Source: Ostreococcus lucimarinus
Lineage: Eukaryota
Direction: 5' to 3' (one strand)
DNA length: 64,000 nucleotides
NCBI GenBank assembly: GCA_000092065.1
Contig: CP000595.1
Made by a program: the position numbers and the translations under genes. Below the pieces are notes generated by a model. That model ran no database searches. It worked only from the letters and a program-made list of their open reading frames with translations, and was not told the DNA's origin. Of the stretch, positions 1,765 through 64,000 are shown piece by piece (position 1 is the stretch's first letter; each line of letters opens with the position of its first letter).

Positions 1765-3108
1765 CTAAGGATCGATCTTAAGTTTTTTTGGGGTGTCGAA
1801 GACGGCGTCTGATTCGGCGTCGACGCCGGCGGCGGCTTCGCGGGCGGTTTTGGAAGACGGCTTCGACGCGTTTGGTTTCGATTTCGGCGTCGAGCGAGGG
1901 GTGGCGACGCGCTTTGGCGTGCGGAGCTCTGCGGGCAGGGCGTCTCTGACGTGCTTGAGCTCGGCGATGAAGAGAGCGTTGTGGGCCCAGCCGCAGTAAG
2001 GGCCGAAAATTTCCTTCATCTTGACCTCGATCGAGCGCATGACGCGAGGGGTGACGGATTTGGCGTCGCGTAATTCTGGCATGTAGTGCTCGACGGCGAA
2101 TTGCCACACGTGCGTGTCCACTGGGATCGCCTCGTGCTTGTTCAGGGAGAACAAGCACACGCAAGCGGATACTTTGGGACCGATCCCCGGGAGCGTCATC
2201 AGCGCGGCGTGGGCGTCGACGTACGGCGTTTCGTCGCGAAGCGCGCGCAAGAATTCGTCTGGAGAAGAGCCGACGGCGTCGCCCGCCTCCCCCAAAGCCG
2301 CCGCGGAGCCGACGATGAATTTGGCGCGATAACCAAAACCCAACGCTCGTAATTCCTCCTCCGTCGCGCCGTCAAGAATCTGCGCAACGCTCGGAAACGC
2401 ATAAAATTTCTCCGCCTCGGCCGCCGCCGCGGTCTCTTCGCCGCCGTTCTCGTCTCCATCATCATCATCCTCTTCTAAATCCCGCGTCGTCACCGGCAAC
2501 GCGTCTCCGTAGTGTACACACATCTTATTCACCATCCCGTGTATCCTCGAGATGTGATTATTGCTCGAACAAATAAAACTAAACAAGCACTCGCTCGGAT
2601 CCTGCCTTAACATCCGAGCGCCGTCCACGTGCGCCGCGAGCGCTCGAAACCTCCCATCCTTCGCCGCAAACTCCTCGTACAGCCTCTCCAGCGACACGTC
2701 CGCGTTAAAATATTCCCTCATCACCCTTCGATCGTCCGTCGCGCTCTCCCATCGCGGTCGACAGTACACTTTATATTCCACCTCGCCTCGCTCGCCGTCG
2801 TCGACTTCCCGCACTCGCACCACGCGTCGTCCGACGACGCCGACGTACTCTCGTCCGTCCTCGCGACCTCGCGCGCGCCAACGGAAGCTCTGTCCCGTGG
2901 GCAGCGTGTGCTTCAGCCGAAGTTCGCGCGTCGCGAGTCCGAGCGGCGTCCAGGTCGCGTCGAGGCACTTCGCCACGTCGCCGCCGCCGTCGCCGTCGCG
3001 CGCGTCCATCGTCGTCGCGCGCTCGGTCGCGCGCGACGCCGCGCGGCGACGCGCGCTCGGTCGCGCGCGCGCGATCGACCGGGCGAGCGCGAGCGGCCGC
3101 GCGCGCAT
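1765..3108 (-). CDS. OGG1: 8-oxoguanine DNA glycosylase / AP lyase (OGG1, HhH-GPD family)
   Basis: This is ORF 1765..3240 in the track. It contains LRLKHTLPTGQSFRWR (the OGG_N block) and the HhH-GPD block LPGIGPKVSACVCLFSLNKHEAIPVDTHVWQFA. The track start at 3240 is GTG. The first ATG is at 3108 and gives an Arg-rich presequence. A second ATG at 3009 (MDARDG...) is also possible. Confidence 0.85.
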   Translation of the reverse strand: MRARPLALARSIARARPSARRRAASRATERATTMDARDGDGGGDVAKCLDATWTPLGLATRELRLKHTLPTGQSFRWRARGREDGREYVGVVGRRVVRVREVDDGERGEVEYKVYCRPRWESATDDRRVMREYFNADVSLERLYEEFAAKDGRFRALAAHVDGARMLRQDPSECLFSFICSSNNHISRIHGMVNKMCVHYGDALPVTTRDLEEDDDDGDENGGEETAAAAEAEKFYAFPSVAQILDGATEEELRALGFGYRAKFIVGSAAALGEAGDAVGSSPDEFLRALRDETPYVDAHAALMTLPGIGPKVSACVCLFSLNKHEAIPVDTHVWQFAVEHYMPELRDAKSVTPRVMRSIEVKMKEIFGPYCGWAHNALFIAELKHVRDALPAELRTPKRVATPRSTPKSKPNASKPSSKTAREAAAGVDAESDAVFDTPKKLKIDP

Positions 3109-3551
3109 GCGCGTCGGCGTGTGCGACGCACCGCGGTCGCGCGATGAATCGGCAACGGAATCAGCCCGTCGCGACGATCGCGCGCGCGCGTCGTCGTCGT
3201 CGCGCCGACGCGATTCGGAACCGACCGAGACCGCGAACACAAATTTTCGCGAGCCCGACCGCGCGCGCGCGCGCCGACGCGACGCGAGGGCGGTGTTAAC
3301 GCGCGCGCTTTCGCGAGCCTCGCGAAAAGATGGGAAAAACGCACGAAACGGCGCGCTCGAGACGACACACGGCGACGCGCGGTGCGCGACGACGACGAGA
3401 GACGATGCCGGTGGCGCAAATAAAGGTGCGCGCGCGTCGTCGAGCGCGCGTCGTCGAGTGCGCGCGCGTCGTCGTCGACTCGGTGGATTGAACGCGCGTC
3501 GTCTCTGTGCGCCTCGAGACTGACGATTCGTTTCTCGCGAAAATATCGCAG

Positions 3552-3934: not shown

Positions 3935-5284
3935 CTATTCGTGATCGTACTGGTAATCTTCAAAGTCATTGTACATCAGCTTCCCATCCACGTCGCAATG
4001 CACGGCGTCGAAGCAAAGCTTGCAGAAAAAGCTCGGGCTCTCCGCCGCGAGTTTGTCGCCGTACGTGACGTGAGAGCTATCGAACACGCCGCACACGGAG
4101 CATCCTCGTCTATACACGCGCCCTTCGCGAATGACTAAAGGAAACATTTCGTTCCGCGTTTCGTCGTCCGAATGCGGCATGCGCACGTCTCGAACGCGCC
4201 ATTTGTGCTCGCATTTGCCTTGATGCGTCATCACGTACGGGCGCCCAATCGTCAGCGGCACTTGGCTGAACTTCACCCCTTCCATGTCTCGCGCGGTGAA
4301 CCCCTTGCCCTCGTTGTTCATCTTAACCGGCGCTCCCGGCGCCATGAGCGCGTTTTTCTTTTGAAATTCTATGAGATGCTCGGAGTAATCAGTCGCGCCC
4401 GGCGTCCGCATGTCGTTGTAAAACACGCCTTCGATGAAGAGAAATCCATTCTTCGACGGCGGATGCCCCTCGCGCGCGGCTTGGACGTCTCTGAGGCAGT
4501 ATATCATATCCTTGAACGCCGCCAACGGCGTGGACCCGCGCACGATGACGTCCATCAGCAAGTATCCCTGTTTGACCGGGTGATACAGTTCGATCCAAAT
4601 CATCGCCTCCTCCCCCGTCGGCGTCGCCGCGGCGTCGTGGCGAACACCGCCAACCTCGCAATCAAACAGCTCGCGCGCCTTCCACATCACCTGCGTCACG
4701 TCCACTTCTTTTCGCAACAGCGCCCGTTTGTAATCTCTCGCCTCCAATTGCTTATGTTCCAACTCAACCTCCCGCATCGACGCCAACGGTGCCATGGCCG
4801 TCTGCTCGCTCAGATGCTTCGTCATCAACCGCGCTTTCTCCGCCTTCTGCGCCTCCTCCTGAAACGTCAACTGATGATTCTTCGCCCCCGTCCCTCGATG
4901 ATTCCGCGCGCGGCCCGCGTCCTCCTCCACCGACGGCACGCTCGGCATCAACGACTCGATCGCCCGCTCCAGCGTCACCGCGCGATGCGTTTCCATCTCG
5001 ATATCATCCTCCTCGATCGCCGTTCGACGCTTCCGTCCCTTTCCCGCCTTTTTCGTCCTCGCGCTCGCCTCGCGCGCCGCGCTCGACGCCTCCGCCGCGT
5101 CCCGCAACCGTTTCACCGCCCGATGCGCCTCCTCGCAGAACCGTTTCGCGTCCTTCGTCCGCTCGGCCGCTCGCCCGATCGTCAGTCTTCGCTCGCGTCG
5201 CCTCTCCGCGTCGCTCTCGCGCCCTCGCGCGTCCGCGAGCCGCGTCGAAAGATTCGAATTCGCCGTTCGGTCGTCGCACCTCAA
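3935..5284 (-). CDS. SNAPC3: snRNA-activating protein complex subunit 3 homologue (SNAP50 / SRD2-like)
   Basis: The C-terminal block reads CEHKWRVRDVRMPHSDDE...RRGCSVCGVFDSSHVTYGDKLAAESPSFFCKLCFDAVHCDVDGKLMY. This matches the SNAP50 C-terminal zinc-binding domain pattern (C-E-H...C-x-x-C...F-F-C-x-x-C-F...H). The 5' end is uncertain. The track start at 5284 is TTG, and the first in-frame ATG is at 4996. See the finding on the 5' end of this gene. Confidence 0.7.
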   Translation of the reverse strand: MRCDDRTANSNLSTRLADARGRESDAERRRERRLTIGRAAERTKDAKRFCEEAHRAVKRLRDAAEASSAAREASARTKKAGKGRKRRTAIEEDDIEMETHRAVTLERAIESLMPSVPSVEEDAGRARNHRGTGAKNHQLTFQEEAQKAEKARLMTKHLSEQTAMAPLASMREVELEHKQLEARDYKRALLRKEVDVTQVMWKARELFDCEVGGVRHDAAATPTGEEAMIWIELYHPVKQGYLLMDVIVRGSTPLAAFKDMIYCLRDVQAAREGHPPSKNGFLFIEGVFYNDMRTPGATDYSEHLIEFQKKNALMAPGAPVKMNNEGKGFTARDMEGVKFSQVPLTIGRPYVMTHQGKCEHKWRVRDVRMPHSDDETRNEMFPLVIREGRVYRRGCSVCGVFDSSHVTYGDKLAAESPSFFCKLCFDAVHCDVDGKLMYNDFEDYQYDHE

Positions 5285-6555: not shown

Positions 6556-9270
6556 ATGTCCGACAACCCCGACGGCGCGTCCGACGACGAGAGCGCGCGC
6601 TGTCCGCACTTTTCTTACGCCAGAGCCAATCCATCGCTCGCGCAACAATCCGCGTCGACGAGCGCGAAAGACGCGTCCGTGACGCTCGTCGTCGCGCGAA
6701 ACGATCGCTGCGTCATCGCGTACGACGATGGGTGCGTGCTCGTCGCGAGCGCGCGAGACGCGCGACGGGTGATCTGGAGGACGCGAACGCGGCGCGCGGC
6801 GTCGGCGTTGGCGACGGACGGCGCGAGCGCGCACGTGCTCGTCGCCGACGCTCGAGGCGAGATCGCGGTGCACGAGCTGCCGATAGACGATGGAATGGAC
6901 GCGAGCGAACGCGCGGGCGGGGCGCGCGGGCTGGGGGACGGGTGCGAGGTGATGCGGACGACGCACGCGCGCGGCGTGACATGCGCGGCGCTCGAGCGCG
7001 ACTACGGCGCGCGCGGACGCGGAAGAGGCGGCGTGGCGTACGGAGACGATCGCGGTGGGGTGTACGTGCGCGTGAGCACGCTCTTGGGACATAAAACGTT
7101 GACGCTGAGCGCGGCCGGAGGGAGCGATCGCGGGGCGGCGCGCGCGATGGAATGGAGCTCGCGCGGCGTCTTGGCGTGGGCGTGCGACGAAGGCGTGAAG
7201 CTGTACGACGTGGGACGGGATGAAAAGGTGGCGCTCGTCGAGCGACCGCGAGGAAGTCCGGCGGCGGGGATGTACGCGCCGCACTTGACGTGGAACGAGA
7301 CGTCGGACATGGGGAAGACGTTGCTCGTGGGATGGGCGGATTGCGTCAAGGTTGTTAGGATTCAGAAGCAGGACGCGCCGGATTCGAGCGTCGCGGCGAA
7401 ACTTTTGCGAGATAAGCCGACTCGCGGCGCAACGCGCGAAATTACTCGGGCGGATTCGTTTGCGAATGGGGGCTCGAGCGAGGGAGATAACGCGTCGGCG
7501 AGCGAGGCGTCGTCGGCGAGAGTTTACGTCGCGCGCGTGACGTCGATGTTTCAGACGGAGTATTACGTCGCGGGCATTCAACCGTTCGGGGATTTATTGG
7601 CGATTTTAGGTTGGTCCACGGATGGCGATCGCAAAACCGGGGCGCATCCGGAGTTGCACCTCGTCACGCACGCGAATGTCACGCAAAATATCGACGTCAT
7701 CGCGACGCGAGACGATCCGACAACGCTCGGATGCAACGCGTACGGGTTGGCGTGCGCGCAACCTATGCTCGATAACGGGAGCTTTGATCGATGTAAACAC
7801 GTCGGCGATCATAGATGGTGGAAGATCGGACTCGAGCCACGATTTTACGTGTACTCTCCGAAAGATCTCATCGTGGCCAAGGCGACGGGCGCGAGAGAGT
7901 CCATCGATTGGTTGTCGAAACAGGAAGACTACGTCAAGCTGCTCGACGTGTGCGAGTTGGCGTCGCGATACGGCCACATCGATGGGAGTGTGCGGGATAT
8001 TGGACATAGTGTTTTGCAGCGCACGTTTGACGAGCGAGATTACGCGCAAACGGCAGCTTTGTGCTCGAAATTGTTGCGCAAAGACGCCGCCGCGTGGGAA
8101 ACGTGGATTGAAAAGTTCATGCTGGCTCGCAAGCTCGCGGAGTTACAGCCGTATATTCCCACGGATGACCCGACGCTGAGCGTGCACACGTACGAAGTGG
8201 TGTTGAACGCGTTTCTAGCGGAAGCAGAGCATCATTCGCGCTTTCTCGCCTCCGTCAAGGCGTGGCCGGCGCGTTTGTATTCGCCTCAGTTTCTCATACC
8301 CGTCGTTAAGAGCAAGCTCGCGTCGTTGAACACCAACGCGGGAAGCCCGTCGGTGGCGTCATCGGTGTCATCGGTGGTACTGAAAGAAGCGCTCGCGGAG
8401 CTGTATCTCAACGATGGTCAACGCGAACGGGCGTTGAACTTGTACCTGGACATCGGTCGGCCGTCTGTGTTGAGCTTCATCGCTCGTCACGACTTGCTCT
8501 CTTTCGTCGCTCGCAACAAGCTTTCTCTCTTGGCGCAACTCGATATTGACGCGGCGATGTCGCTTTTCGTGCAGAAGCGAGAAAGCTTGCCGCCGCGAGT
8601 CGTGATTCCCGAGCTTTTGGGTCAAGGCGGCTTCGGCGCTCGAGAGTTGACGCACGCGTACATGTCGGCTCTCTTCGACGAAGACCCGACGTGCTTCGAA
8701 GAGTTCCACGACAAACTGTACGAGTTACACCTGGAGTTCAACCCAAAGGCACTGATGAACTTTTTGAAGAAGAGCGCGTCGTATGACGTCGCGCGCGCGT
8801 GCGCCTTACTCACGGGCAACAAAGCGCTCATCTTCGAGCGCGTGTTTCTGCTCTCCAAACTTGGTTCGCACGAAGAAGCCGTGCGCGTGCTCGTGACGGA
8901 CGCCAAGGACCTATCGGGCGCCATAAAGCTTGCGAGTGAGCTGGACAACCCCGTCGAGCTCTGGAACGTCATCATCAAAGTCTCAACCGACTCGAAGGAT
9001 TTCATGGCGACGCTTCTCGCGCACGCCAAAAATCTCGCCGGCGACCCCAACGCCATCGCCCTCATCCACGCCCTGCGCGAAGGCGTCTCCATCGACAACC
9101 TCAAATCTCGCCTCGTCGATCTCATGGACGAAAACATCGCCCTCACGCGTTCGCTGCGAACGTCGTACGCATCTGAATCCAAGCGCGCTCGGGAATCGTA
9201 CGAGCGCAAAACCAAAGTCGAAACGCGCGCGCTCCGCCGCCATCAAATCCACGTCAGCCGCAAGCGATGA
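6556..9270 (+). CDS. VPS41: Vacuolar protein sorting 41 (HOPS complex subunit)
   Basis: The ORF begins with a true ATG at 6556. The blocks MEWSSRGVLAWACDEGVKLYD, LLVGWADCVKVVRIQ and VTSMFQTEYYVAGIQPFGDLLAILGW are collinear with the VPS41 beta-propeller-to-solenoid junction. A long alpha-solenoid (clathrin-heavy-chain-repeat-like) C-terminal half follows. Confidence 0.85.
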   Translation: MSDNPDGASDDESARCPHFSYARANPSLAQQSASTSAKDASVTLVVARNDRCVIAYDDGCVLVASARDARRVIWRTRTRRAASALATDGASAHVLVADARGEIAVHELPIDDGMDASERAGGARGLGDGCEVMRTTHARGVTCAALERDYGARGRGRGGVAYGDDRGGVYVRVSTLLGHKTLTLSAAGGSDRGAARAMEWSSRGVLAWACDEGVKLYDVGRDEKVALVERPRGSPAAGMYAPHLTWNETSDMGKTLLVGWADCVKVVRIQKQDAPDSSVAAKLLRDKPTRGATREITRADSFANGGSSEGDNASASEASSARVYVARVTSMFQTEYYVAGIQPFGDLLAILGWSTDGDRKTGAHPELHLVTHANVTQNIDVIATRDDPTTLGCNAYGLACAQPMLDNGSFDRCKHVGDHRWWKIGLEPRFYVYSPKDLIVAKATGARESIDWLSKQEDYVKLLDVCELASRYGHIDGSVRDIGHSVLQRTFDERDYAQTAALCSKLLRKDAAAWETWIEKFMLARKLAELQPYIPTDDPTLSVHTYEVVLNAFLAEAEHHSRFLASVKAWPARLYSPQFLIPVVKSKLASLNTNAGSPSVASSVSSVVLKEALAELYLNDGQRERALNLYLDIGRPSVLSFIARHDLLSFVARNKLSLLAQLDIDAAMSLFVQKRESLPPRVVIPELLGQGGFGARELTHAYMSALFDEDPTCFEEFHDKLYELHLEFNPKALMNFLKKSASYDVARACALLTGNKALIFERVFLLSKLGSHEEAVRVLVTDAKDLSGAIKLASELDNPVELWNVIIKVSTDSKDFMATLLAHAKNLAGDPNAIALIHALREGVSIDNLKSRLVDLMDENIALTRSLRTSYASESKRARESYERKTKVETRALRRHQIHVSRKR

Positions 9271-9590
9271 GCGCGCGCGTCGAGTCAAATCCATCGTTCG
9301 TGTCTTTCAATAGCCGTAGCCATAGTTTCTAGCCGTAGCGTGTAGATCGAATTCCGAATTCGAGAACGCGTCTCGCCGCGCGTCTCTCGGTCGCCTCTCG
9401 ACCTCCAGTCACGTCGCTTTCACCACTCGCCCGCGCGTCGCGCGCGCGTCACGCTCGCGCCGACCCGCGCGCGCGACGCACCGTCGAACTCCGCGCCCCT
9501 GGCCGCGTTCTCACGCGCGCGCACCCTCACCGCGCGCGAAAATCCGCCGTTCGTTCGAGTCCAATTCGCGCGGTCGAATCGAGTTTCAAA

Positions 9591-10664
9591 ATGGTTGATA
9601 ACGGCGCGATAAAAACCATCGGCGACGTCGAGACGGTCGTCCTGAGCGCGCTGGAACTCATGGAAGATAAAGTCACGCGATCGTAGCGCGCGCTGGAGAA
9701 AAAACTGGAGGAATTAGAGCGGGAATGCGCGAGGAGACACGAGGAGTTGAAGCAGTTGTTGACGGGGAAGCGCGCGAACGACGCGACGGCGACGAAGAGC
9801 GCGAAGAGAACGTCGAGAGACGACGACGCGGTGGCGACGATAATATCGATGGATTTATCGCGACCGACGCCGGCGACGGCGGAGAAGCAGGCGACGCGTG
9901 AGGGGGTACGTGAGATGAACGCGCGCGCGCCGCAAAAGAAACTAAAGGCGAGCCCGTTGGCGACGGCGTCGATGAACGCGAGCCTGCAAAAGTCGGTGAA
10001 GAAGAAACCGTCCGCGGCGTCGCCGGAAAAATCGAAGCGGAGTAAGAATAGCGCGGATCTCTGCGCGCACATCACGGATTTGACCGCGGACGAACGGTTG
10101 CTCGTGGAGACGGGCAAGGGGCGGCGAGGCGAGCCCATGCCCACGCCTCTCGGCTGGGCGTATTGGACGGCGACGAGCCACGAGACGCTGCGCACGATCG
10201 GCAACAAAATTGGCCTCGAACCGTTGACGTTATACAGCATGAATCGTTGGCACCATAAGCTCAAGAATTACGACATCGATCAAGAGTTCACCGCGAACTC
10301 CAAGCTCAGTCTCCCGGTGCCGCCGTTTGAGGACTGGGAGACGGAGTACATCGCGGCCGACCGCACAAAGATTTTCACGCGCCTGCTCGACCGCATCGAC
10401 GAAGTCTGGCCCGAGGTTTTGAGAAACGCCGAACCTCTGCGTTCGCTGAAGAGGGAGCAGTTGAAAACGTACCCCGACTCGGGCACGTTGTATCGCCAGT
10501 TGCGCGAGACGTTGGACAACGCCGAAGCCGCCGCGAAAAAATTCAACGACGGCGACGAGACTCTCCGGGACGTCCAGCAGTGTCGAAAGCAGCTCGTAAC
10601 GCGTTGGCATCGCGACGGGTTCTTGCTCCCGGACGAGATCGCGTTCAAAGCCGACGACCAGTAG
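9591..10664 (+). CDS. Hypothetical protein with a coiled-coil N-terminal part and a LysM-like segment; the reading frame is interrupted by an in-frame TAG at 9684-9686
   Basis: The ATG at 9591 opens 31 codons (MVDNGAIKTIGDVETVVLSALELMEDKVTRS) that end at a TAG. The same frame then stays open to 10664. The first ATG after the TAG is at 9849. The segment YWTATSHETLRTIGNKIGLEPLTLYSMNRW...ANSKLSLPVP resembles a LysM pattern. The overlapping minus-strand ORF 9527..10264 looks like an artefact. Confidence 0.5.
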
Positions 10665-12312: not shown

Positions 12313-12502
12313 ACGTCAGCTAGCAACTTGTATTATATACATCGTCGAGCAATCGACGAGCGAGACTAAATTTGATCGTAAATTTTATCGCGGTGGTATT
12401 AAAATAACTCTACACTGGCGGATTACCCCTTTAAATACGTTATGATCCACGCACTAAATATACGATATAGTGCTAAAGTACCCTAGAATATGATAAATTA
12501 TA

Positions 12503-12512
12503 AAACCCTAGG
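12503..12512 (+). promoter_or_regulatory. Telo-box-like motif AAACCCTAGG in the AT-rich island upstream of ALS
   Basis: I read the motif directly from the sequence, about 125 bp upstream of the ALS ATG at 12637. It lies inside the only AT-rich stretch between the SET gene and ALS (12313-12520). AAACCCTA is the plant telo-box core. Its function here is inferred. Confidence 0.3.
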
Positions 12513-12636
12513 AACAAAAACAGCCTGGCGAAAGCCCTGGCTGGCGACGCGACCGACGTCACTCGCGCGCGCACGCGTGCGGCGCGCGCCTCACTCGCAC
12601 GCGCATCGCACGCGACGCGACGCTCAGACGCCCACG

Positions 12637-14670
12637 ATGCGACGCACCGCCGTCGCGAGCGCGCCCGCGCGCGCCCCCGCGTCGCGCGCGGCGCCGCGGA
12701 CACACGCCGCCAATCGCAGCGCCGCGTCGACGAAATTCGCGCGCGCGCGCCGCGCGCCGCGCGCGGTTCGCCAGCCCGACGCGTCGGAGTACGTCGATCC
12801 GTCGCAGTTCACCGAACTCGAGCTGTCCACGGCGCAGATGACGGCGTACGCGAGCAAACGACCGAGAGGGCAGTTCGCGTCGAGGTTCGCGGACGACGAG
12901 CCGCGCAAGGGGTCGGACATCCTGGTCGAGGCGCTCGAGCGCGAGGGCGTGGACTGCGTGTTCGCGTACCCGGGAGGGGCGTCGATGGAGATTCATCAAA
13001 GCCTGACGAAGAGCGCGACGGGGATACGGAACGTGCTGTGCCGACACGAACAAGGGGAGGTTTTCGCGGCGGAGGGATACGCGAAGGCGACGGGTAAGGT
13101 GGGCGTGTGCATCGCGACCAGCGGACCGGGGGCGACGAATTTGGTCACGGGGTTGGCAGATGCGCTGTTGGACTCGGTGCCGATGGTGGCGATCACGGGA
13201 CAGGTGCCGCGACCGATGATCGGGACGGACGCGTTTCAAGAGACGCCCATCGTGGAGATCACGAGACAGATCACGAAGCACAACTATTTGGTGATGAACG
13301 TCGAGGAAATTCCGCGAATCGTGCGCGAAGCGTTCTTTTTGGCCGCTTCAGGACGTCCGGGCCCGGTTTTGATCGATATTCCAAAGGATGTGCAGCAGCA
13401 GTTGGCGGTTCCGTATTGGGAGCCCAAGGTTTCGCTCAACGGTTACTTGAGCCGTCTGCCCGCGCCGCCGACGTCGCCGCAGCTCCAACAAGTTTTGGAT
13501 TTGATTAAGGACTCAAAGCGTCCGGTGGTGTACGCCGGCGGTGGATGCTTGGACGCCGACTTAGAGCTGGTTGAATTCTGCCGCGCGACGGGGATTCCCG
13601 TGACGAACACGCTCATGGGTCTCGGTACGTTCCCGCAGAGCGACGATTTGAGCCTGAGCATGCTTGGCATGCACGGTGCGGTGTATGCCAACTATGCGAT
13701 CGACAGCGCTGATTTGTTGCTCGCTTTTGGCGTGCGATTCGACGATCGTGTGACCGGTAAGTTGGCGGAATTCGCCAAGCGCGCCGCCATTGTGCACATC
13801 GACATTGATCCGGCGGAGCTCGGTAAGAACAAGAAGCCGTTCTGCTCCATCTTTAGCAACATCAAGCCCGCGTTGAAGACTTTGAACAAGTTGATCGCGC
13901 TCGAGAAGGATATGCCCGATTTCTCGGAGTGGCGCGCGGCTATTGACGTGCAGCGCAAAAAGTTCCCGTTTCCGATTCCCGAGCAAGTCGGCGACGTCAT
14001 CGCTCCGCAGGCGGCGATCGAGCTGTTGTGCAAGATGACCGAAGGTAAGGCGATCATCTCCACTGGTGTCGGTCAGCACCAAATGTGGGCGGCTCAGCAC
14101 TACAAGTTTGACGAGCCTCGCAACTGGCTCACGTCTGGTGGTTTGGGTTCGATGGGCTTCGGCTTGCCCGCCGCCATCGGCGCCGCCGCGGCGCGTCCTG
14201 GCGATCTGGTCGTCGACATCGACGGCGATGGCTCGTTCGTCATGAATATTCAAGAACTCGCGACCTTGCACGCGGAAAACTTGCCGGTGAAGTGCTTCAT
14301 CTTGAACAACCAGTACCTCGGCATGGTCGTGCAGTGGGAGGATCGATTTTACAAGGCGAATCGCGGTCACACGTACCTCGGCTCCCCGAATGACGATTTC
14401 CAAGTCTCCAAGGAAGAGGCGCACATTTTCCCCGATTTTGTCACCATCTCACAGGGCTTCCGCGTCCCCGCCGAACGCGTGATGCGCATGAGCGATCTCG
14501 AAGGCGCGATCAAGCGCATGATTGAAGCCGACGGTCCGTACTTGCTCGACGTCATGGTGCCGCACGTCGAGCACGTGTTGCCCATGGTCCCCGGCGGCGG
14601 TACGTTCGCCGACACCATCACCACGGGTGACGGGAGAAGCCCGGAAGAGAAGGACATGAAAACCTTGTAA
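12637..14670 (+). CDS. ALS: Acetolactate synthase (acetohydroxyacid synthase) catalytic subunit, plastid-targeted type
   Basis: The ORF shows full-length ThDP-enzyme collinearity. Diagnostic blocks include [96 protein letters not shown] and [20 protein letters not shown]...[19 protein letters not shown]. The ATG at 12637 gives an Ala/Arg/Ser-rich transit peptide. The track start at 12490 lies in the AT-rich promoter. Confidence 0.95.
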
Positions 14671-16241: not shown

Positions 16242-18338
16242 TCAAGCGGCGACGCACGTGCGACCGGTGAACCAATTCCTCTCCGTTTTGACCGCGCCGC
16301 TTATTTCGGACGCCACCGCGCCGCCTTCCGCCCAGCCGCCGGTTTTAGAGACTTGGAGCGCTTTGAAGCGTCCCATGTTCGCGCCTTCGACGCCGAAAGC
16401 CGCGGGGAGATTACCGGTGAAATCGGCGGCGCGAGTGGGCTCGCCGTGCGTTTTCAAGGAGTGACCGATCCATAACGATGTGTCGCCGGTTCGCCTGACG
16501 CGAAGGGTGAAGGTGACGTTGCGCCAAGCGTATCGTCCGTACGGCGATCCAGCGCTACCGAGCCACGAGTTGGCGTTCATCCACTGCCCGTTCGCGCTTC
16601 TGTAGCCAACTTGTGTTCTGAACCCCGCATTAGCGACGAGATCCGCCGCTTCGGGGCTACTGCTGTCTTCCACGACGATGGAAATATACACCGTTTTACC
16701 GTAGGCCGTGCAACAGCTACCGGCGCCATCCCCATTCACACGGTCGAAGGTGCAGTATCTGCCCGCCGAATATCTGTCGAGTTGACATCTATCGTCCATA
16801 GTGGCGCCTATCCAAGCCTCGTTCCAATCATTGGCGTCGTCCAATGCAGGGTGAAAGACATCCTCCGCGGCGGCGGTGCCGGTGACTCCATACCCGTGTC
16901 CAAAATAGATCATGGGGTAGCCATTTTCAAATACTGGTTGCGAGTACCTCGACAGCGCGTCCTCTGACGTGTCGAACTCATCAAAGTCACTCGGCTGCAC
17001 GTTCACCAGACGTTTCGAGCCCCCAGACCGAAATCCACTCGGGCACGCGGCGAGACACTCGCCATTGTGAAGGAATTTCCTGTTGGTACACTCAGTACAC
17101 TGACCGTTCAGACACTTGTTGCAGTTAGTTGGGCACTGCGTGCACCGTCGCGTCGTTGGAGTCGACCCACTACCGCCGTAACCCGGCGGACACGCGAGAG
17201 AACACGTGCCACCCAGATACCAAGAGCCTTCAGGGCACCAAAACTCGGGAATCGGGCACGAAGCAGCGCACCCACCGAAGACGTACGAAATGTCTTTCGC
17301 GTTGCGTTCGAGCGTCACGATTCTGTTCCAGAACGCGCCGAACTGTTGGGTATCGTGACATTTTCTTTCAAAAAGTGGAGCGCCGTTACCGCCGATTTCG
17401 TACAGCGCCTTTCCATTTTCACTCTTCACAACGAATCCAAACTCATAGTTGAGACCCCTCGTAGTGACTTCGAAGATGCCATCTGAAGTCGGGCAGACGA
17501 GTCCCAGCTTCGTAGAAACACATTTCAAGAAATTCACGGCGCCGTTGATCATCTCTTCACCTTCGTGAAGTTCAAAGAATCCGTGGTTCGGATCGTTATC
17601 GTGCATATTGTGGTGAACGACGTACGCGTGCGTCAGCGTCTCGTCGGGGCCAAAAATTTCGGGCCACTTGTTCCTGATTTTGGCGTCGATGCAGCTCGTG
17701 TGCAGCGTGAACCTCCGCTCCTCGCGTCTCTCGCGTCTGCTCGGCAATCTCGCGACCGAATAGTCCCACTTCCCGAGGCGACCGACCCCGGGCGAACGGT
17801 ACGCGCTCCGATTCACTGGATTCAACGCGGCGGTTTCCTCGCTCCGCGCGACGCGGCGCGGCGCGAGACGGTACGTCCCCAGAGACGTCGGCCCCGGCTC
17901 GACGACGTTTTCTCGCCCCAACGCCGCCGAGCTCGCGGACGCCGGATCTGCTTCCAACGCATCCGGGCAGTGATGTTGTATCGCCTCCACCACGCGCGTG
18001 TCCCCCGGCCCGCACGCCGGTTCCGTGAACACGCACTGCTGTTCCTCCGTCGTCTGAATCGCCGCGCAATCCATCGGCTCCGCCTCGAGCGCGCTCACGA
18101 GCGTCGGCGTGGCGTTCCGACACGCCTCCAGGCACGCCACGGGAACGTCCGTGAACGCCCCGAGCGCGGCGCGCCCCGTCGCGCCGTCGCCGCCGACCAG
18201 CGCGAGCGCCGCGACGCCGAACGCGACGCCAACACCCATCGCGAGCCACAGCTTCGACTTCGCGCCGCCGCGCGCGCGCGCGCCGTCGCCGTCGAGCAAC
18301 CGCGCGCGCTCGGCGTCGCGCATCGCGCCTCGATCCAT
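16242..18338 (-). CDS. Hypothetical type II (N-terminal signal-anchor) membrane protein with a furin-like / growth-factor-receptor-type Cys-rich repeat
   Basis: The ORF begins with a true ATG at 18338. It has a single N-terminal TM helix (LWLAMGVGVAFGVAALALVGG). The Cys-rich block reads CPEGSWYLGGTCSLACPPGYGG...CTQCPTNCNKCLNGQCTECTNRKFLHNGECLAACPSGF. The amino-acid composition is ordinary throughout. Confidence 0.6.
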   Translation of the reverse strand: MDRGAMRDAERARLLDGDGARARGGAKSKLWLAMGVGVAFGVAALALVGGDGATGRAALGAFTDVPVACLEACRNATPTLVSALEAEPMDCAAIQTTEEQQCVFTEPACGPGDTRVVEAIQHHCPDALEADPASASSAALGRENVVEPGPTSLGTYRLAPRRVARSEETAALNPVNRSAYRSPGVGRLGKWDYSVARLPSRRERREERRFTLHTSCIDAKIRNKWPEIFGPDETLTHAYVVHHNMHDNDPNHGFFELHEGEEMINGAVNFLKCVSTKLGLVCPTSDGIFEVTTRGLNYEFGFVVKSENGKALYEIGGNGAPLFERKCHDTQQFGAFWNRIVTLERNAKDISYVFGGCAASCPIPEFWCPEGSWYLGGTCSLACPPGYGGSGSTPTTRRCTQCPTNCNKCLNGQCTECTNRKFLHNGECLAACPSGFRSGGSKRLVNVQPSDFDEFDTSEDALSRYSQPVFENGYPMIYFGHGYGVTGTAAAEDVFHPALDDANDWNEAWIGATMDDRCQLDRYSAGRYCTFDRVNGDGAGSCCTAYGKTVYISIVVEDSSSPEAADLVANAGFRTQVGYRSANGQWMNANSWLGSAGSPYGRYAWRNVTFTLRVRRTGDTSLWIGHSLKTHGEPTRAADFTGNLPAAFGVEGANMGRFKALQVSKTGGWAEGGAVASEISGAVKTERNWFTGRTCVAA

Positions 18339-18402
18339 CGCGCGCGCGCTCGAACGCGCCGCGCGCGTCGCAGTCGCGTCGCCGCGCGCGCGAAGGATGG
18401 CA

Positions 18403-18533
18403 CGATCGATCGACGCGCGTCGACCCTCGCGCCGTCGATCGATCGACGCGCGTCGACCCTCGCGCCGTCGATCGATCGCGCGCGTCGACCCTCGCGCCGT
18501 CGATCGACCGATCGATCGATCGACCGATCGACG
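18403..18533. repeat. Tandem repeat of three 33/33/32-nt units (cgatcgatcgacgcgcgtcgaccctcgcgccgt) followed by a degenerate (cgatcgac/cgatcgat) tail
   Basis: I counted the units directly: 18403-18435, 18436-18468 and 18469-18500 (one base shorter), then the tail to 18533. The array lies in the 277-bp divergent promoter between the ATG at 18338 (minus strand) and the ATG at 18616 (plus strand). Confidence 0.9.
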
Positions 18534-18538
18534 AAAAA

Positions 18539-18548
18539 GCGCGGGAAA
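18539..18548 (-). promoter_or_regulatory. E2F-like site TTTCCCGCGC (matches TTTSSCGC) about 70 bp upstream of the RBR start codon
   Basis: The plus strand reads aaaaaGCGCGGGAAAag. The match to the E2F consensus is exact. CG-rich background makes chance matches common, so confidence is low. Confidence 0.3.
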
Positions 18549-18615
18549 AGGCGATTGCGAATCGACGCGACATTCGCGCGCTCCGGGACGCGGCGCGCGC
18601 GCGTCGACGACGGTG

Positions 18616-58742: not shown

Positions 58743-58902
58743 TCGTCATCAAACAAAGTTCAATTATTAATTTACCCCACTAGCGGCGCTTGGGATCACG
58801 ACATTAGCGCCTTGATCCTTGTTATAACGCACCACAGTTATACCGCGCCGACGCGCCGCACACGCCGCCTCGCTCGACGCACCCGATGGCGTGAATCCCG
58901 GA

Positions 58903-61900
58903 ATGTCGCCCCCCACGCTCGACGCCGCGCTTCGTCGCAACGCACGCGAGCGCCCGAGCGCCATCGCGTGCGTCCTCGTCCCGAACGCGCGCGAGAAGAA
59001 CCGAAAGTGCTTCTTCACTTGGGACGAGTTACACGGCGTCGTCGACGCCCTCGCGCGCGTCTTGCGCGCCGACCGCCATCCGCGCGTTCTGAGCTTTTGT
59101 CGCGACGGCGTCGAGGCGTTCGTGGCGCTGCACGCGTGCGCGCGGGCGCGGAAGAGTTTGGTGAACGTGGACGCGGCGACGCCGGCGAGCAGGATTCGGG
59201 ACGTCGCGCGGGACGCGAACGCGACGACGTGTCTGTGCGCGAACGACGGCGATGAAGACTCGGTAAAATCGGTGTTAGGAGAAGACGGTGTCGCGGTGCG
59301 CGTGTGGGAGGTGATTAATGCGGGCGCGGAGGCGATCGAGGCGGAAGAGGACGAGACGCGAGAGGACGACGAAATTTGGATTGCGTACACGAGCGGGACG
59401 ACGGGAAAATGCAAGGGCGCCGCGGCGACGCATCGACGCGCGATGGCGTACGCACGGGCGAAGTGTGAGGTGGAAGAGATCGACGCGTGCTCGCGGGTGT
59501 GCTTGGCGTCGAACGCGACGTTCGATTTGTGGCACGGCGACGCGTGCGCGGCGGCGGCGGCGGGCGCCGCCGTCGTCGTCGCGTCTCGCGCGACTTTTCA
59601 ACACGATTTCGCGAGAGTGTTGCGAGAGGGCGAAGTCACGCACGTGTGTTGCACGCCGACGATGTTCTCGCTGGCGCGACTTCCGCGTGGGATCGTGGAC
59701 GCACCGAAGTTGCGATGCGTATCGCTGGCGGGGGAGCGCATGCGCGAGAGCACAATCGCACTATGGGCCGACGACGTGGCGTTGTACAACGTGTACGGTG
59801 CCACGGAAACGACTGTGGTGCAAACGTACGCAAGAATGCGCAATGCAGAAGACGAAAGCACGAATCGGGCGGGGAAAGCGTACGAAGGATTTGCCAGCGT
59901 GTTCGTCGTGGATGAAATGCGCGAAGGCGAATTGGCGGTGCAATCCTTCGCGCAGAGACGCGGCGTCGAAGGCGAAGTTGCCATCGGCGGTATTTGCGTC
60001 GCAGACGGGTATTTGAACGACCCCGAACGCACGGCACGTGCGTTCGTTCACTCACCATTCGGTACCGTCTATCTCACGGGCGATCGCGGGTACATCGATG
60101 ACGCAGGCGATTTGTATTTGCGCGGTAGACTCGATCGCCAAGTCAAGATTCGCGGTCATCGCGTCGAGTTGGATGAAATCGAAGCCGCGCTTCGTTCGTG
60201 CCCCGCACTATGCGACGACGCCGTCGTGTTCTACGATGCCAATGAGGGAGTGCTGACTTCCCACGCACGAGCAGCTTCGCCGACGTTCGACGCGTCGAGC
60301 GATGCAGATTTATACGCGTTCGCGCTCGAACGCGTCGTCGAGCTACGATTGCCGCGACACATGGTGCCTCGTCGACACGTCTTCATCGAGCACGCGCGAT
60401 GGCCTTTGACTTCGAGTGGAAAAACGAATCGTCAGATACTGCTTCAATGGTTTGCGAGCGGCGAGACGAAGGCGTTTCGACCTAAGCGTGAGAAACCGCA
60501 AGCGGGATTGGAAACAGTCGTCGCGAACGCTTGGGCTGTCGCGCTGGGGCACGGCGACGCGAGCGATATCGGCGCCCTCGACGCGTTCGATGCGCTCGGT
60601 GGAACCTCACTCAACGTTCTCGCAGTTTCAAAAGCGCTGGCGAGCGACGACGGAATCGTGCGCTCGCGCGATACCGCGCGTGGCGAAATTGTGCGCGAAG
60701 CGCGAATTGGTTTACGCGACGGCGAAGCTGCGGCGCTGCTCAACGACGGCGAAGAACCCGCGGCGTGCGCGTTCGACGTCATCGACGGCCCGTTCGCACC
60801 GTGCGAAATATTCGCGAGACCCGTGCTTCGCGATTACGTTGATTATTTGCGAGCGCAAGGTATAGACGCCGACGTGAACGCTCCCGCGTCCACCGCCGTC
60901 GAGCCACAGCGAGATACATCTGCGAATCGTCGCATGCTCGCGGCGTGCGGTCGCGGCGTCGCCCCCGTCGTTCGCGCTTTGCTCGCGACCGGCGTCGAAG
61001 CATCGGGCGAGCACCTTCGAGCCGCCGCCGCGAGCCTCGCCGACGAAGCCGTGGACGTAGTGCAAACTTTACTCGCCGCCGGTGCGGATGCAAGTTCATC
61101 ATCCGCCACAGCCGGTACGCTCGCGACGCACGTCGCCGCCGCTCGCGGGAACTCTGAAATGTTAGAAATGTTGCTCGCCGCCGGCGCTCCAGCGGGAGCG
61201 AAGGACGCGGATAAGCAAACGATTTGTCACTTAGCAGTGCGGAGCGGGGATGTGAGTACCGTGCGCGTCGCGGCAAACGCGTGTAAACACTTGAAGACAC
61301 GCAAAGGTGGCTTGGAGTCGTGGGATCGTTGGAAGCGCACGCCCGCAGCGTGGGCGCTCGTCGCGGGATCGAGTGAAATTTTAGCCGAGTTGCGAGATGC
61401 CGGGGCGAATTTAACATCGCTTGAAACTGACGTCTCCAACGCCTGGGTGCACGGTTCGCTGAGCGCAAAGAGCGAGGTGCAGTTGGCGCATCGCCCGGTT
61501 CGCAAGCGAGGTGCCGCGGCGGAGGTGTTGAGCGCGCTCGCGGCTAGATTGGACGCCGCAAACGTCGAGAGCGAACGTATTGAAGCGGCGACGGCGATTC
61601 GCGAGCTCGTGTGCGCAAACGCAGAGAATCGAGAAAAGGCGCGAACGATCGGTTTGGTGCCAAAACTGTGCGAACTCGCGCGCGATCGTCACTGCGTTGA
61701 AGCCATCGGCGCGTTGAGAAATTTAGCCACCAACACGAGCGCGGCAGGGGCGGCTGGCGACGCCGGAGCTATGGAAATCCTCGGTGATGTCATTCGCGCT
61801 CGTGCTAAATTAAAAGACAGCGAGCTGAGTGCTGACGATAGGCGAGTAGTGTACGCTGCGGCGAGCGCGATGCGCGCGTTGGCGGTGAAGCACGACGCGA

Positions 61901-61977
61901 ATGCCGCGCGATTGCGCGCGTCGAGAGACGTCGCGGACGTCGTCAGTCGATTGTGCGAAGGCATGCGATTAGAGTAG
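58903..61977 (+). CDS. NRPS-like adenylation (A) and thiolation (T/PCP) didomain enzyme fused to ankyrin and armadillo-like repeats
   Basis: The track start at 58891 is GTG, and the first ATG is at 58903. The A-domain core motifs are IAYTSGTTGKCKG (A3), NVYGATETTV (A5), YLTGDRGY (A7), GRLDRQVKIRGHRVELDEIE (A8) and LTSSGKTNRQ (A10). The T-domain motif is FDALGGTSLNVLAVSKAL. The ankyrin repeats include TLATHVAAARGNSEMLEMLLAAGAPAGAKD. The C-terminus reads as ARM/HEAT-like helical repeats. I recognised no C, TE or R domain. Confidence 0.85.
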   Translation: MSPPTLDAALRRNARERPSAIACVLVPNAREKNRKCFFTWDELHGVVDALARVLRADRHPRVLSFCRDGVEAFVALHACARARKSLVNVDAATPASRIRDVARDANATTCLCANDGDEDSVKSVLGEDGVAVRVWEVINAGAEAIEAEEDETREDDEIWIAYTSGTTGKCKGAAATHRRAMAYARAKCEVEEIDACSRVCLASNATFDLWHGDACAAAAAGAAVVVASRATFQHDFARVLREGEVTHVCCTPTMFSLARLPRGIVDAPKLRCVSLAGERMRESTIALWADDVALYNVYGATETTVVQTYARMRNAEDESTNRAGKAYEGFASVFVVDEMREGELAVQSFAQRRGVEGEVAIGGICVADGYLNDPERTARAFVHSPFGTVYLTGDRGYIDDAGDLYLRGRLDRQVKIRGHRVELDEIEAALRSCPALCDDAVVFYDANEGVLTSHARAASPTFDASSDADLYAFALERVVELRLPRHMVPRRHVFIEHARWPLTSSGKTNRQILLQWFASGETKAFRPKREKPQAGLETVVANAWAVALGHGDASDIGALDAFDALGGTSLNVLAVSKALASDDGIVRSRDTARGEIVREARIGLRDGEAAALLNDGEEPAACAFDVIDGPFAPCEIFARPVLRDYVDYLRAQGIDADVNAPASTAVEPQRDTSANRRMLAACGRGVAPVVRALLATGVEASGEHLRAAAASLADEAVDVVQTLLAAGADASSSSATAGTLATHVAAARGNSEMLEMLLAAGAPAGAKDADKQTICHLAVRSGDVSTVRVAANACKHLKTRKGGLESWDRWKRTPAAWALVAGSSEILAELRDAGANLTSLETDVSNAWVHGSLSAKSEVQLAHRPVRKRGAAAEVLSALAARLDAANVESERIEAATAIRELVCANAENREKARTIGLVPKLCELARDRHCVEAIGALRNLATNTSAAGAAGDAGAMEILGDVIRARAKLKDSELSADDRRVVYAAASAMRALAVKHDANAARLRASRDVADVVSRLCEGMRLE

Positions 61978-62014: not shown

Positions 62015-64000
62015 TTAGCAAATTTGCGCACGCGTTTGAAGCAAGACGATGCGATCGCCCACGACGGCGCCTTCGATGTCTTGCGGCGAGCCTCGATAGC
62101 TCTCCACCGACTTGGCGATGTCGGAGATTCGTCTAATCATCGCTTCGCGCGCGAGGGAGTTCCACACGATAGACGACGCGGTGTAGTCCACCACGCGTTC
62201 TTCCGTAGGCTCGGCGGTGATGCTGTCGTAGAGACCAGCGCCGGCGAAATTTTCCAAGTCTTCACCGTTCGAGTCGCTTCTCGCGATGACGGTACCGCCG
62301 GATGGCGCAAAGTGCCCGCAGAGCTTACTCGGAAGCGAACGAAGCGTGACCTCACCCGTTGTCTTGCTCACCGTAAATCCGAGCGCACTACCAGCGTCGT
62401 TACCGACCAAAGTTTCCCCGAGACCGACGCAAATCTCACCAAAGATTTCATCCGCGTCGCCGGTGACAGGGTTGGCGGTGTGCACCACGAAGGCGAATTC
62501 GGCGTCCACGAGTTCCATGAGAAGCACGGCGACGTTGAGATCCTTGTCGTCGATGCCGCAGGATTTACGCGACAACCACGCACGCTCTGTCCATTTTGAC
62601 GCCCATACACCGCAAACGGCGTCCCAGAGTCGCGGGAGGTCGACGGATGGTGAAAGCTTCGCCGCCGCTTCGTCGAGCGCGGATTCCAAACCTTGCGGGC
62701 ACACGAGACGGGTGGCGATGATTTCTCGCGCATCCGCGAGCGCCGCACGGCGGTCTTCGGCGGTAGTCGCTGTCTCAATGGCGGCAACGGCTGCTTCGAG
62801 CGCAGTACGAGTGTCGACGTCTTCCTCGAGGGCGCGTTCAAAGGTGCCAAATGGAAGCGCGTACGATCCTGGCACGTCGACGTTCGCAATGTTCATTGCG
62901 GCGAGTTCCTTGGCCATTTCCGAAAGACTGTTGCTCTTGCCGCCGACAATATCGCTGCTGTACGCGTCAGGAGTAATCAGCCACGCGTCAGAGGGCTTGT
63001 AAGGGGCGATAGACACCTTGGTCGTCGCCTTGGCGCTCGCCGTCGTCGTCGCGTCGGAGACGTTGGCTTTATCAATCTGCACATCTTCACCCGCGATAGA
63101 GAATCGCACGTTTTCACCCGCCATCTCTAGGACTTTGTTCCAAAGTACGTCATCTGCGACGCTCGCGAGAAGCACGTTCGTGTTTCTCGCTCGAATGGCG
63201 ATGTGACTGAGCAGATCGACCGGCGCCTTGGTGACGACGGCCTTGACGCCCGCGGGAATGTCTTCCAACCCACCGAGCGTTTCGGTGAAGCAAACCATGG
63301 GAGTGGACGAAAAATCTTCGCCTTGAATCTCACTGAGCGTTTGAACTTTCGCCATCCCGGCGTACGTCTCGAGGCTGGCGTCGCCGACGCTGACAATTTG
63401 CCAAGGCGAGCGACCCGCGGCGGCTCGAACCGCCGGACGAAGCGTCGAAATCAATTGCGAGACGACAAACAGGCTGTGTGAGCGCACGTTTTCTTCCCCA
63501 AAGTTGATCAAGTACTTGGGATCAGCCTTGGTGGACTTAGACGCGATGATATCTGCAGCGTTTTGCGTAGCGCGGCACAAAAAGTCCATATCGCTCTCCA
63601 TGGCGAGAGCGCAGAAATCGAGCGCGGCGTCCATGGTCTTCGACCAGTCCGCGCCCCAGCGTTCGCCGTGACCGTCACCCATGGCGACTTGGAGAAATTT
63701 TAAGCCCTCGCCGATGCGCGTGGACTCGTTCGTCAGCGCGACGTTCGTCAAAGAAAGCTCGAGAAGCGAAAGCAAATCATCCGAGGACATTGCGCCGTAA
63801 TCGACGGCTTCCACCTTGGTTCTGAAAAACTTTTCCAACGTCGCGTCGAGCATGACGACGTCTCGGTTCGGGCTGTCGTGTTGCCAAACTCCGAGAAGCT
63901 TCTTACGAACTTCGATAATTTTCCCCGGCACCCACCACGCGTCGCGGTTTTGCAGCAAATCGTCCACCTCCCACGCCAAGTCGCCGGGCAAACCGTTTCT
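62015..64000 (-). CDS. GWD: Alpha-glucan (or phosphoglucan), water dikinase, C-terminal part; the N-terminus lies beyond the right edge of the window
   Basis: The phosphohistidine swivel motif is AVVTKAPVDLLSHIAIRARNTNVLLASV. The nucleotide-binding (PPDK_N-like) blocks include VGGKSNSLSEMAKEL...VDVPGSYALPFGTFE and NGEDLENFAGAGLYDS...PQDIEGAVVGDRIVLLQTRAQ. The frame is still open at position 64000. Confidence 0.85.
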   Translation of the reverse strand, partial: RNGLPGDLAWEVDDLLQNRDAWWVPGKIIEVRKKLLGVWQHDSPNRDVVMLDATLEKFFRTKVEAVDYGAMSSDDLLSLLELSLTNVALTNESTRIGEGLKFLQVAMGDGHGERWGADWSKTMDAALDFCALAMESDMDFLCRATQNAADIIASKSTKADPKYLINFGEENVRSHSLFVVSQLISTLRPAVRAAAGRSPWQIVSVGDASLETYAGMAKVQTLSEIQGEDFSSTPMVCFTETLGGLEDIPAGVKAVVTKAPVDLLSHIAIRARNTNVLLASVADDVLWNKVLEMAGENVRFSIAGEDVQIDKANVSDATTTASAKATTKVSIAPYKPSDAWLITPDAYSSDIVGGKSNSLSEMAKELAAMNIANVDVPGSYALPFGTFERALEEDVDTRTALEAAVAAIETATTAEDRRAALADAREIIATRLVCPQGLESALDEAAAKLSPSVDLPRLWDAVCGVWASKWTERAWLSRKSCGIDDKDLNVAVLLMELVDAEFAFVVHTANPVTGDADEIFGEICVGLGETLVGNDAGSALGFTVSKTTGEVTLRSLPSKLCGHFAPSGGTVIARSDSNGEDLENFAGAGLYDSITAEPTEERVVDYTASSIVWNSLAREAMIRRISDIAKSVESYRGSPQDIEGAVVGDRIVLLQTRAQIC

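Follow-up and report, generated by a model that had tools for sequence, protein, structure and literature searches.

Within a 64,000-nucleotide stretch of nuclear DNA from the picoalga Ostreococcus lucimarinus CCE9901 (contig CP000595.1; hereafter the window) we examined a single gene at positions 58903-61977. Its product combines, in this order, an adenylation (A) domain of nonribosomal peptide synthetase (NRPS) type, a carrier (T) domain with an insertion, ankyrin (Ank) repeats and armadillo (ARM) repeats. Our preferred reading, held with moderate confidence and drawn from the sequence, is that this protein is a stand-alone NRPS-like A-T loading enzyme which would load itself with an amino acid and pass it in trans to a partner held on its repeats. 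The frame comprises 1028 codons (58891-61977, forward strand), with its first ATG at 58903 in the open reading frame (ORF) list, and the 1024-residue product from that ATG was identical over its full length (100%) to XP_001421631.1/ABO99924.1 of strain CCE9901 (UniRef A4S8J0). That entry is deposited under the label 'predicted protein' only, and the coordinates match its gene model exactly. A sequence-only reading of the window had proposed a stand-alone NRPS-like A-T didomain fused to Ank and ARM repeats; the domain, Protein Data Bank (PDB) and fold evidence given below confirms this, and adds two features that had been overlooked, a conserved insertion in the carrier domain and homologues in dinoflagellates.

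The A domain matched Pfam AMP-binding (PF00501) over residues 10-371 (E 3.6e-49; 168 bits against a cut-off of 29.9), and its best NCBIfam family was TIGR01733, 'amino acid adenylation domain' (E 3.9e-77), followed by DltA (E 1e-46) and named NRPS models. Fatty-acyl-CoA ligase models reached about 1e-39, approximately 40 orders of magnitude weaker than TIGR01733. The best PDB sequence matches were units of an NRPS A domain with its peptidyl carrier protein (PCP), led by LgrA (E 4.6e-62, residues 38-579) and including TycA, SrfA-C, ApnA, DltA and GrsA, while identity to bacterial A domains was 28-37%. A pattern scan located 10 of the 10 core motifs A1-A10 (Table 1), among them the five (A3, A5, A7, A8, A10) that had been recognised by eye. 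Two residues, D208 (GrsA D235) and K507 (GrsA K517), did not vary among 37 orthologues or in distant homologues of all clades; an amino-acid substrate is bound at these positions by its alpha-amino and carboxylate groups. Likewise invariant across very distant lineages were the carrier Ser and, in the A domain, the P-loop of A3, the Asp of A7 and the Lys of A10.

To describe the substrate pocket, specificity positions were mapped to GrsA numbering via the motif register. The same mapping on bacterial matches yielded DFWNIGMVHK, DAWTIAAVCK and DLFNNALTYK, which we take to be standard specificity codes, and we regard the mapping as validated because such standard-looking codes were recovered. 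The pocket code read DLGCSAVVVK in Ostreococcus and DISCTAAVLK in the Micromonas type; Mamiellophyceae without exception have Cys at position 278 and Val at position 330. No charged residue was observed in the pocket, which is lined with small or hydrophobic side chains, and a neutral, rather large substrate side chain would therefore suit it. Among 436 alignments of similar bacterial A domains, codes of aromatic type (pattern xxx[TS][IVL]A[AG][IV][CWA]K) were found in 14 (3%), but they included three of the ten best by score and the two best by identity (36.8% and 35.5%). The closest code, DASTVAAVCK, shares six of ten positions with the Micromonas type and is presumably a Tyr code. The code extraction that had been recommended thus gave a readable code and a weak lead towards an aromatic or bulky neutral alpha-amino acid as the possible substrate.

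The carrier domain begins after the A domain and carries FDALGGTSL at residues 562-570, with the codon of Ser569 at 60607-60609. This serine (GGxS, at the start of helix 2) was invariant in the 37 orthologues and in wider alignments, as expected for the GGTS carrier serine of the sequence-only reading. A profile of the carrier region built from 15 family members matched only PCP and acyl carrier protein chains in the PDB (LgrA, 6e-13; PvdL; TycC3 PCP 1DNY, 1.2e-8), and Pfam PP-binding (PF00550, cut-off 20.8 bits) was exceeded in the homologues P0215 (27.7), P0223 (29.7), P0236 (34.0) and P0457 (27.4). In the AlphaFold 2 model the carrier helices span residues 536-548, 569-580, 635-638 and 642-651, and residues 635-651 fit the canonical C-terminal PCP segment 'LFexPTxxxLAxxL'. 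Helix 2 is separated from helix 3 by approximately 50 extra residues, of which 581-602 are variable and 603-634 highly conserved (GLxDGEAAALL..DEPAAC..GPFAPC). This block was the most conserved stretch of the protein, with a mean majority frequency of 0.81 and 41% of columns invariant, compared with 0.59 and 15% in the A-domain core. G607, A609, C622, G629 and P633 were invariant in 15 sequences covering green algae and both dinoflagellate paralogue groups, and Cys622 (codon 60766-60768) was invariant in all aligned homologues. The helix 2-3 loop in carrier proteins adjoins the phosphopantetheine site and contacts partner domains. By its conservation, the Cys-bearing insertion is the clearest hallmark of the family and the best clue to what may be an unusual thioester hand-off. 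Sfp-type phosphopantetheinyl transferases (PPTases) have been listed for O. tauri and Micromonas (PMC4103896).

The repeats lie C-terminal to the carrier, as had been stated, but not directly after the GGTS serine; the rest of the carrier and a variable linker intervene (residues 581-670). The estimate of about 350 repeat residues agrees with the 671-1024 delimited by AlphaFold and Foldseek. A model of this region had a mean predicted local distance difference test (pLDDT) score of 86 (about 90 over ARM residues 871-1017) and consisted of five ankyrin helix pairs, a short connector and approximately 3.5 three-helix repeats. Pfam Ank_2 was detected at residues 743-838 (47.9 bits against 27.3). 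Pfam Arm was not detected in the Pfam scan of the window protein; it was above its cut-off of 20.6 in the homologues P0346 (27.6), P0457 (29.8) and P0461 (34.2) and also in P0215 and P0236, and is precomputed in several Micromonas-type orthologues. The top Foldseek matches in the PDB were engineered DARPin-Armadillo fusions (6SA7, E 6e-8), followed by DARPins (TM-score about 0.8 normalised by target length) and designed armadillo proteins.

Conserved residues were observed in each part of this region. In the ankyrin stack, residues 802-813 make up an atypical loop motif that is invariant, GGLExWDRWxRT, and the connector has a basic motif, HGxLSxxSxVQxxxRPxRK[RK] (850-868), that is kept in the Mamiellophyceae core group. 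Invariant ARM residues were R900, N909, R910, R939, N940, R981 and K996, with C904 conserved. N940 is the helix-3 Asn, a residue that touches peptide backbones in repeats of importin-alpha and beta-catenin type and, in the importin-alpha type, forms hydrogen bonds with the backbone of extended peptides. The ARM residues appear to favour a binding role over a catalytic one because the invariant set is rich in basic and amide residues, and no His/Glu pairs suggestive of a metal site were found among them.

All of these domains belong to one gene. The Ostreococcus UniRef entry A0A7S0XJ70 (809 residues), one of a series derived from transcriptome assemblies, aligned without a break to residues 232-1004, starting midway through the A domain and ending within the ARM repeats, and a Polykrikos TRINITY transcript encodes A, T, Ank and ARM within a single ORF. 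No ORF break was observed in any full-length family member. A Pfam scan of the window protein found no condensation (C), thioesterase (TE) or reductase (R) family at E<=1, in agreement with the sequence-only reading; the condensation domain PF00668 is also not precomputed in any family member. The family alignment showed strong constraint across all regions, the insertion included, with the repeat region conserved to the same degree as the enzyme part.

A search of 5.8 billion clustered proteins recovered 39 clusters at 38-60% identity, mostly of the same length and architecture with a few partial or broken, after which the score fell from 558 to 262 bits and the listed non-family matches were all bacterial NRPSs. 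A profile search of the same set with the family alignment was dominated by multi-module bacterial NRPSs and gave no new members. Named members include O. tauri CEG00424/XP_022840369 ('Ankyrin repeat'), Micromonas commoda XP_002501322 and the transcript-derived Ostreococcus entry, and Joint Genome Institute (JGI) records bear the automatic name 'acyl-CoA synthetase/AMP-acid ligase II'. More distant A-T-Ank-ARM members were found by an exhaustive HMMER search with residues 525-1024 as the query, two of them with EukProt dinoflagellate-transcriptome labels (Polykrikos kofoidii and Yihiella yeosuensis). With the Polykrikos protein as the query, a further search found genome-encoded homologues in Symbiodinium natans ('NRPS7'), S. 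microadriaticum ('gloA') and Symbiodinium sp. CCMP2456 ('lgrB'), together with S. pilosum, Effrenium voratum and Durusdinium trenchii; the three quoted names are automatic transfers. These genome-encoded copies show that the dinoflagellate sequences do not stem from contaminating prey. Both full-length Symbiodiniaceae proteins that were scanned (S. natans and CCMP2456) had PP-binding and Arm above the Pfam cut-offs.

A second dinoflagellate paralogue group (S. microadriaticum, Symbiodinium spp. CCMP2592 and CCMP2456, Polarella glacialis; homologues P0466, P0469 and P0472) contains the A domain, the modified T domain and Ank, but not ARM. In the last three homologues the insertion reads AGDAxLFLPP..GDAECHFGLC.GGPFAPC. 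Since this second group keeps the modified carrier domain and Ank without ARM, these two together appear to form the core that the wider family conserves. As judged from the alignments, the architecture is common to two very distant phytoplankton lineages, Mamiellophyceae and dinoflagellates. It was also observed on unplaced marine contigs of 49-68% GC; for the metagenomic homologues P0215, P0218, P0223 and P0038 the placement information is GC content only (46-49% for the P0038 contig). On one metagenome contig (L006, carrying P0236; GC 0.51; locus 7469-9748) the gene call for the homologue starts only at the end of the A domain, and tblastn with the Ostreococcus protein found residues 302-963 there and not the N-terminal 300, a part that may be intron-split or too diverged.

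Our proposed function is that of a cytosolic stand-alone NRPS-like loading enzyme working in three steps. In the first, ATP and an alpha-amino acid, probably with a neutral, bulky and possibly aromatic side chain, would be converted to aminoacyl-AMP. In the second, the small subdomain would rotate and the phosphopantetheine arm of Ser569 would take up the aminoacyl group as a thioester, a step that would require an Sfp-type PPTase. We are fairly confident of these two predicted steps, given the fully conserved catalytic motifs. In the third and weakest step, proposed with lower confidence from the architecture, the tethered amino acid would be handed over in trans to an acceptor or a partner enzyme held by the Ank/ARM solenoid; transfer in trans is suggested because no condensation, thioesterase or reductase domain is present. 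The Cys622 insertion may take part in the hand-off as a docking element or a transient thiol relay.

Several known systems resemble this protein in part. The vertebrate beta-alanine-activating enzyme AASDH/ACSF4-U26 is also a eukaryotic single-module A-T protein without C, TE or R domains and has C-terminal repeats of protein-interaction type, but these form a PQQ-like beta-propeller, whereas the algal C-terminus is all-helical Ank and ARM. The algal protein further differs from AASDH in the conserved insertion of approximately 50 residues with its invariant Cys, in D208 at the alpha-amino-acid position, and in its occurrence in marine algae and dinoflagellates. The insect beta-alanyl-biogenic amine synthase Ebony is likewise a stand-alone A-T enzyme with a non-canonical C-terminus, which in Ebony resolves the thioester. 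In Ebony and ACSF4-U26, both single-module, other domains replace C domains, and ACSF4-U26 may act in post-translational modification (PMC10531068); as cited there, the C-terminal domain of Ebony has a small catalytic fold that selects amines (Izore et al. 2019). Unlike this atypical condensation domain, the algal Ank/ARM region has no recognisable catalytic site, and the fold search returned repeat proteins only. The analogy with AASDH/ACSF4 and Ebony that the sequence-only reading had drawn is thus a fair working model but not one of membership: the protein is not a member of either family, as it lacks the C-terminal domains that define them. Bacterial free-standing A-T or A + T loaders (DltA/DltC, SyrB1, CmaA, NovH) share the NRPS-type A chemistry and a tethered amino acid for hand-off in trans, but they belong to operon-encoded pathways with identified partners, and none has Ank/ARM or the carrier insertion. 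Fungal Lys2 and the carboxylic acid reductases (A-T-R) have the single-module A-T core plus a thioester reductase domain that the algal protein lacks. The DARPin-Armadillo fusions (PDB 6SA7, 6SA6, 8QZN), the best structural matches to residues 671-1024, also place an ankyrin stack before an armadillo stack; they are artificial binders, the likeness is in fold composition only, and the relative orientation of the stacks differs, as indicated by a whole-model TM-score of about 0.35.

A number of observations weigh against a loading enzyme with a repeat-bound partner. The TIGR01733 score of 259.8 bits was below the curated cut-off of 317.4, and the A domain is best described from its sequence matches as a divergent NRPS-type member and not a textbook one. 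PP-binding scored 13.3 bits in the window protein, below the Pfam cut-off, and the evidence for the T and ARM domains comes from the family as a whole and from structure. The pocket code matched no verifiable code exactly, so that the substrate is a guess backed by modest enrichment, and the pocket residues vary between clades, with distant ones differing. In the AlphaFold model the insertion had a pLDDT below 50, and its placement relative to Ser569 is not given by the model. No biosynthetic cluster was found in the 64-kb window, where the neighbours are housekeeping genes and no partner was identified. Synteny was not conserved either, with orthologue neighbours differing in every lineage examined (two Micromonas-type contigs and three others).

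Other explanations of the same protein differ mainly in the acceptor, which might be a small-molecule pathway or polyketide synthase (PKS) starter, a protein target, or nothing at all in the case of a sensor or scaffold. Bacterial free-standing A-T didomains usually serve small-molecule pathways, and by this precedent the tethered amino acid might be tailored (hydroxylation, halogenation), condensed with an amine as by Ebony, or used as the starter of a giant type I PKS, with the repeats serving for localisation or docking. Dinoflagellates, which also bear the family, are rich in PKS and NRPS genes. We consider such a role possible but unlikely, as no PKS or tailoring gene was linked to the gene in five lineages, the algal PKSs are drawn with an N-terminal ligase loading domain of their own, and the Ank and ARM folds mostly bind proteins or peptides. 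The P0038 contig may also belong to Bathycoccus, which is without type I PKS, although this assignment is unproven. A protein-directed aminoacyl transferase, in which the ARM groove would bind a target peptide and the thioester-bound amino acid would be transferred to it, possibly via Cys622, would account for the lack of a release domain. ACSF4-U26 has been proposed to act in post-translational modification (PMC10531068), and no NRPS with a C domain has been reported in these genomes. The invariance of the helix-3 Asn N940, the conserved Asn/Arg surface of the ARM repeats, the peptide-binding designed armadillo proteins among the top fold matches, and the invariance of Cys622, next to the carrier serine in sequence, are all consistent with a peptide acceptor. 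The support is by analogy throughout, no target and no catalytic residues for the transfer were identified, and we know of no tRNA-independent thiotemplate aminoacylation of proteins in eukaryotes; we therefore regard this explanation as distinctly doubtful. Its boldest form, a thiotemplate, tRNA-independent aminoacylation of proteins or peptides in marine phytoplankton with Cys622 as the second thiol of an E1/E2-like relay, the armadillo groove presenting an extended target segment and the conserved basic RPxRKR connector perhaps serving as a pseudo-ligand of that groove within the same molecule, would be something of a long shot.

We give still less credence to a catalytically reduced scaffold or amino-acid sensor, in which adenylation or loading would act as a ligand-dependent switch for Ank/ARM interactions. 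The absence of a release domain, the equal conservation of repeat and enzyme parts and the sub-threshold TIGR01733 score would suit it, but every catalytic motif is invariant in very distant lineages, which argues for real turnover chemistry. Hardly credible is an ordinary acyl-CoA synthetase or an artefact fusing two genes, for which the automatic JGI names speak. NRPS adenylation models and structures far outscored acyl-CoA ligases, D208 and a carrier domain are present, more than 40 orthologue clusters have an unbroken ORF, and sequences derived from transcripts run from A to ARM. None of the three findings that the sequence-only reading had named as telling against its own proposal was observed, neither an A domain closer by score to acyl-CoA synthetases, nor a T segment without a conserved Ser in orthologues, nor a separate repeat gene.

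In the literature searched we found no description of the protein, its accessions or an A-T-ankyrin/armadillo architecture. A survey of algal PKSs and NRPSs reported no NRPS in Ostreococcus, Micromonas or Bathycoccus and passed over the A-T-Ank-ARM protein because it defined NRPSs by their C domains (PMC4661987). A dinoflagellate survey mentioned ankyrin only with FabD-like acyltransferases. To our knowledge the gene is deposited and automatically annotated yet uncharacterised, and the A-T(insertion)-Ank-ARM architecture, the invariant Cys insertion and the distribution across Mamiellophyceae and dinoflagellates appear undescribed so far. Few stand-alone eukaryotic A-T enzymes are known to us, with Ebony and Lys2 understood and AASDH not; the present protein would be another, kept in Ostreococcus and Micromonas, picoalgae that are ecologically dominant, and also in dinoflagellates, coral symbionts among them. 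Its intact loading machinery, lack of a release domain, solenoid of peptide-binding type and Cys insertion point to a hand-off outside known NRPS logic. A protein acceptor would make the reaction a post-translational modification of a new type, and a metabolite acceptor would imply that major marine phytoplankton make an amino-acid-derived product not known so far. O. tauri is genetically tractable, and the question is therefore directly testable.

Table 1. Positions of the A-T-Ank-ARM gene, its domains and motifs, and other genes of the window.
Feature	Residues	Window coordinates	Strand	Basis
Intron-free single-exon gene, 1024 codons + stop		58903..61977	+	Same as O. lucimarinus XP_001421631.1
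A domain, large N-terminal subdomain	10-410	58930..60132	+	Pfam AMP-binding, TIGR01733, motifs, AlphaFold 2 pLDDT mostly 80-95
A domain, small C-terminal subdomain	411-520	60133..60462	+	Pfam, PDB matches, motifs, invariant K507
Carrier (T/PCP) helix 1, GGTS, helix 2	530-580	60490..60642	+	Family profile, invariant Ser569, Pfam in homologues
Carrier insertion between helix 2 and helix 3	581-634	60643..60804	+	Conservation in alignments
Carrier helices 3-4, EIFARPVLRDYVDYL	635-655	60805..60867	+	AlphaFold 2 helices, conservation, PCP motif comparison
Five ankyrin repeats	671-847	60913..61443	+	Pfam Ank_2, AlphaFold 2 pLDDT ~90, DARPin matches
Ank-ARM connector	848-870	61444..61512	+	35% invariant columns, alignments
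~3.5 armadillo-type three-helix repeats	871-1020	61513..61962	+	AlphaFold 2, Foldseek, Pfam Arm in homologues
A1	38-43			Pattern scan
A2	79-90			Pattern scan
A3 YTSGTTGKCKG	162-172			Pattern scan
A4 TFDL, contains D208	206-209			Pattern scan
A5 NVYGATE	296-302			Pattern scan
A6	357-370			Pattern scan
A7 YLTGD	390-394			Pattern scan
A8 GRLDRQVKIRGHRVELDEIE, spans hinge	408-427			Pattern scan
A9 LPRHMVP	483-489			Pattern scan
A10 SSGKTNR, contains K507	504-510			Pattern scan
Giant gene B, single ORF, 7684 aa		35688-58742	+	Domain scan
Giant gene A, 3246 aa		25891-35631	-	Same repeat types as gene B
Glucan-water-dikinase-like gene, runs off window end		62015-63991	-	PPDK_N + GWD1 phosphohistidine-like domains
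RB-family (RB_A/RB_B)		18109-21624	+	
OGG1		1765-3240	-	
SNAPC3		3935-5284	-	
Vps41		6556-9270	+	
Acetolactate-synthase-like (ALS-like) TPP enzyme		12490-14670	+	

The stop of giant gene B lies 160 bp upstream of the start of the A-T-Ank-ARM gene, whose own stop lies 37 bp from that of the convergent glucan-water-dikinase-like gene. Gene B encodes teneurin-type EGF, Big_9/cadherin-like and ephrin-receptor-like Cys-rich repeats and a C-terminal Ion_trans segment that contains an S4-like arginine-repeat helix (RSARFVKFARVAKVRVIRVFRR). These domains suggest a very large extracellular repeat protein joined to a membrane module that resembles a channel, and gene B is neither a PKS nor an NRPS. The orthologues have other neighbours. 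Two Micromonas-type contigs have a D27-like and a WD40-repeat gene (with an F-box in one) upstream and ribosomal S10 and a CCT subunit downstream, while in three other lineages the neighbours were MRP-L53 and EF-hand genes, a GPCR-like gene, and EF-Tu and La. The adjacency to gene B, which the sequence-only reading thought might or might not be meaningful, carries no functional signal because gene neighbours differ between lineages, and we reject a functional link to this EGF/cadherin-like membrane protein.

Further genes of the window include one for an Mpv17/PMP22-family protein. Gene A is weakly paralogous to gene B (24-33% identity over several segments), and the two stand head-to-head with start codons 56 bp apart, an arrangement that suggests that they share a bidirectional promoter region. 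Gene B had a GC content of 0.50-0.57, compared with approximately 0.61 in the flanking genes; across 28-34 kb of the window, within gene A, the value was approximately 0.52.

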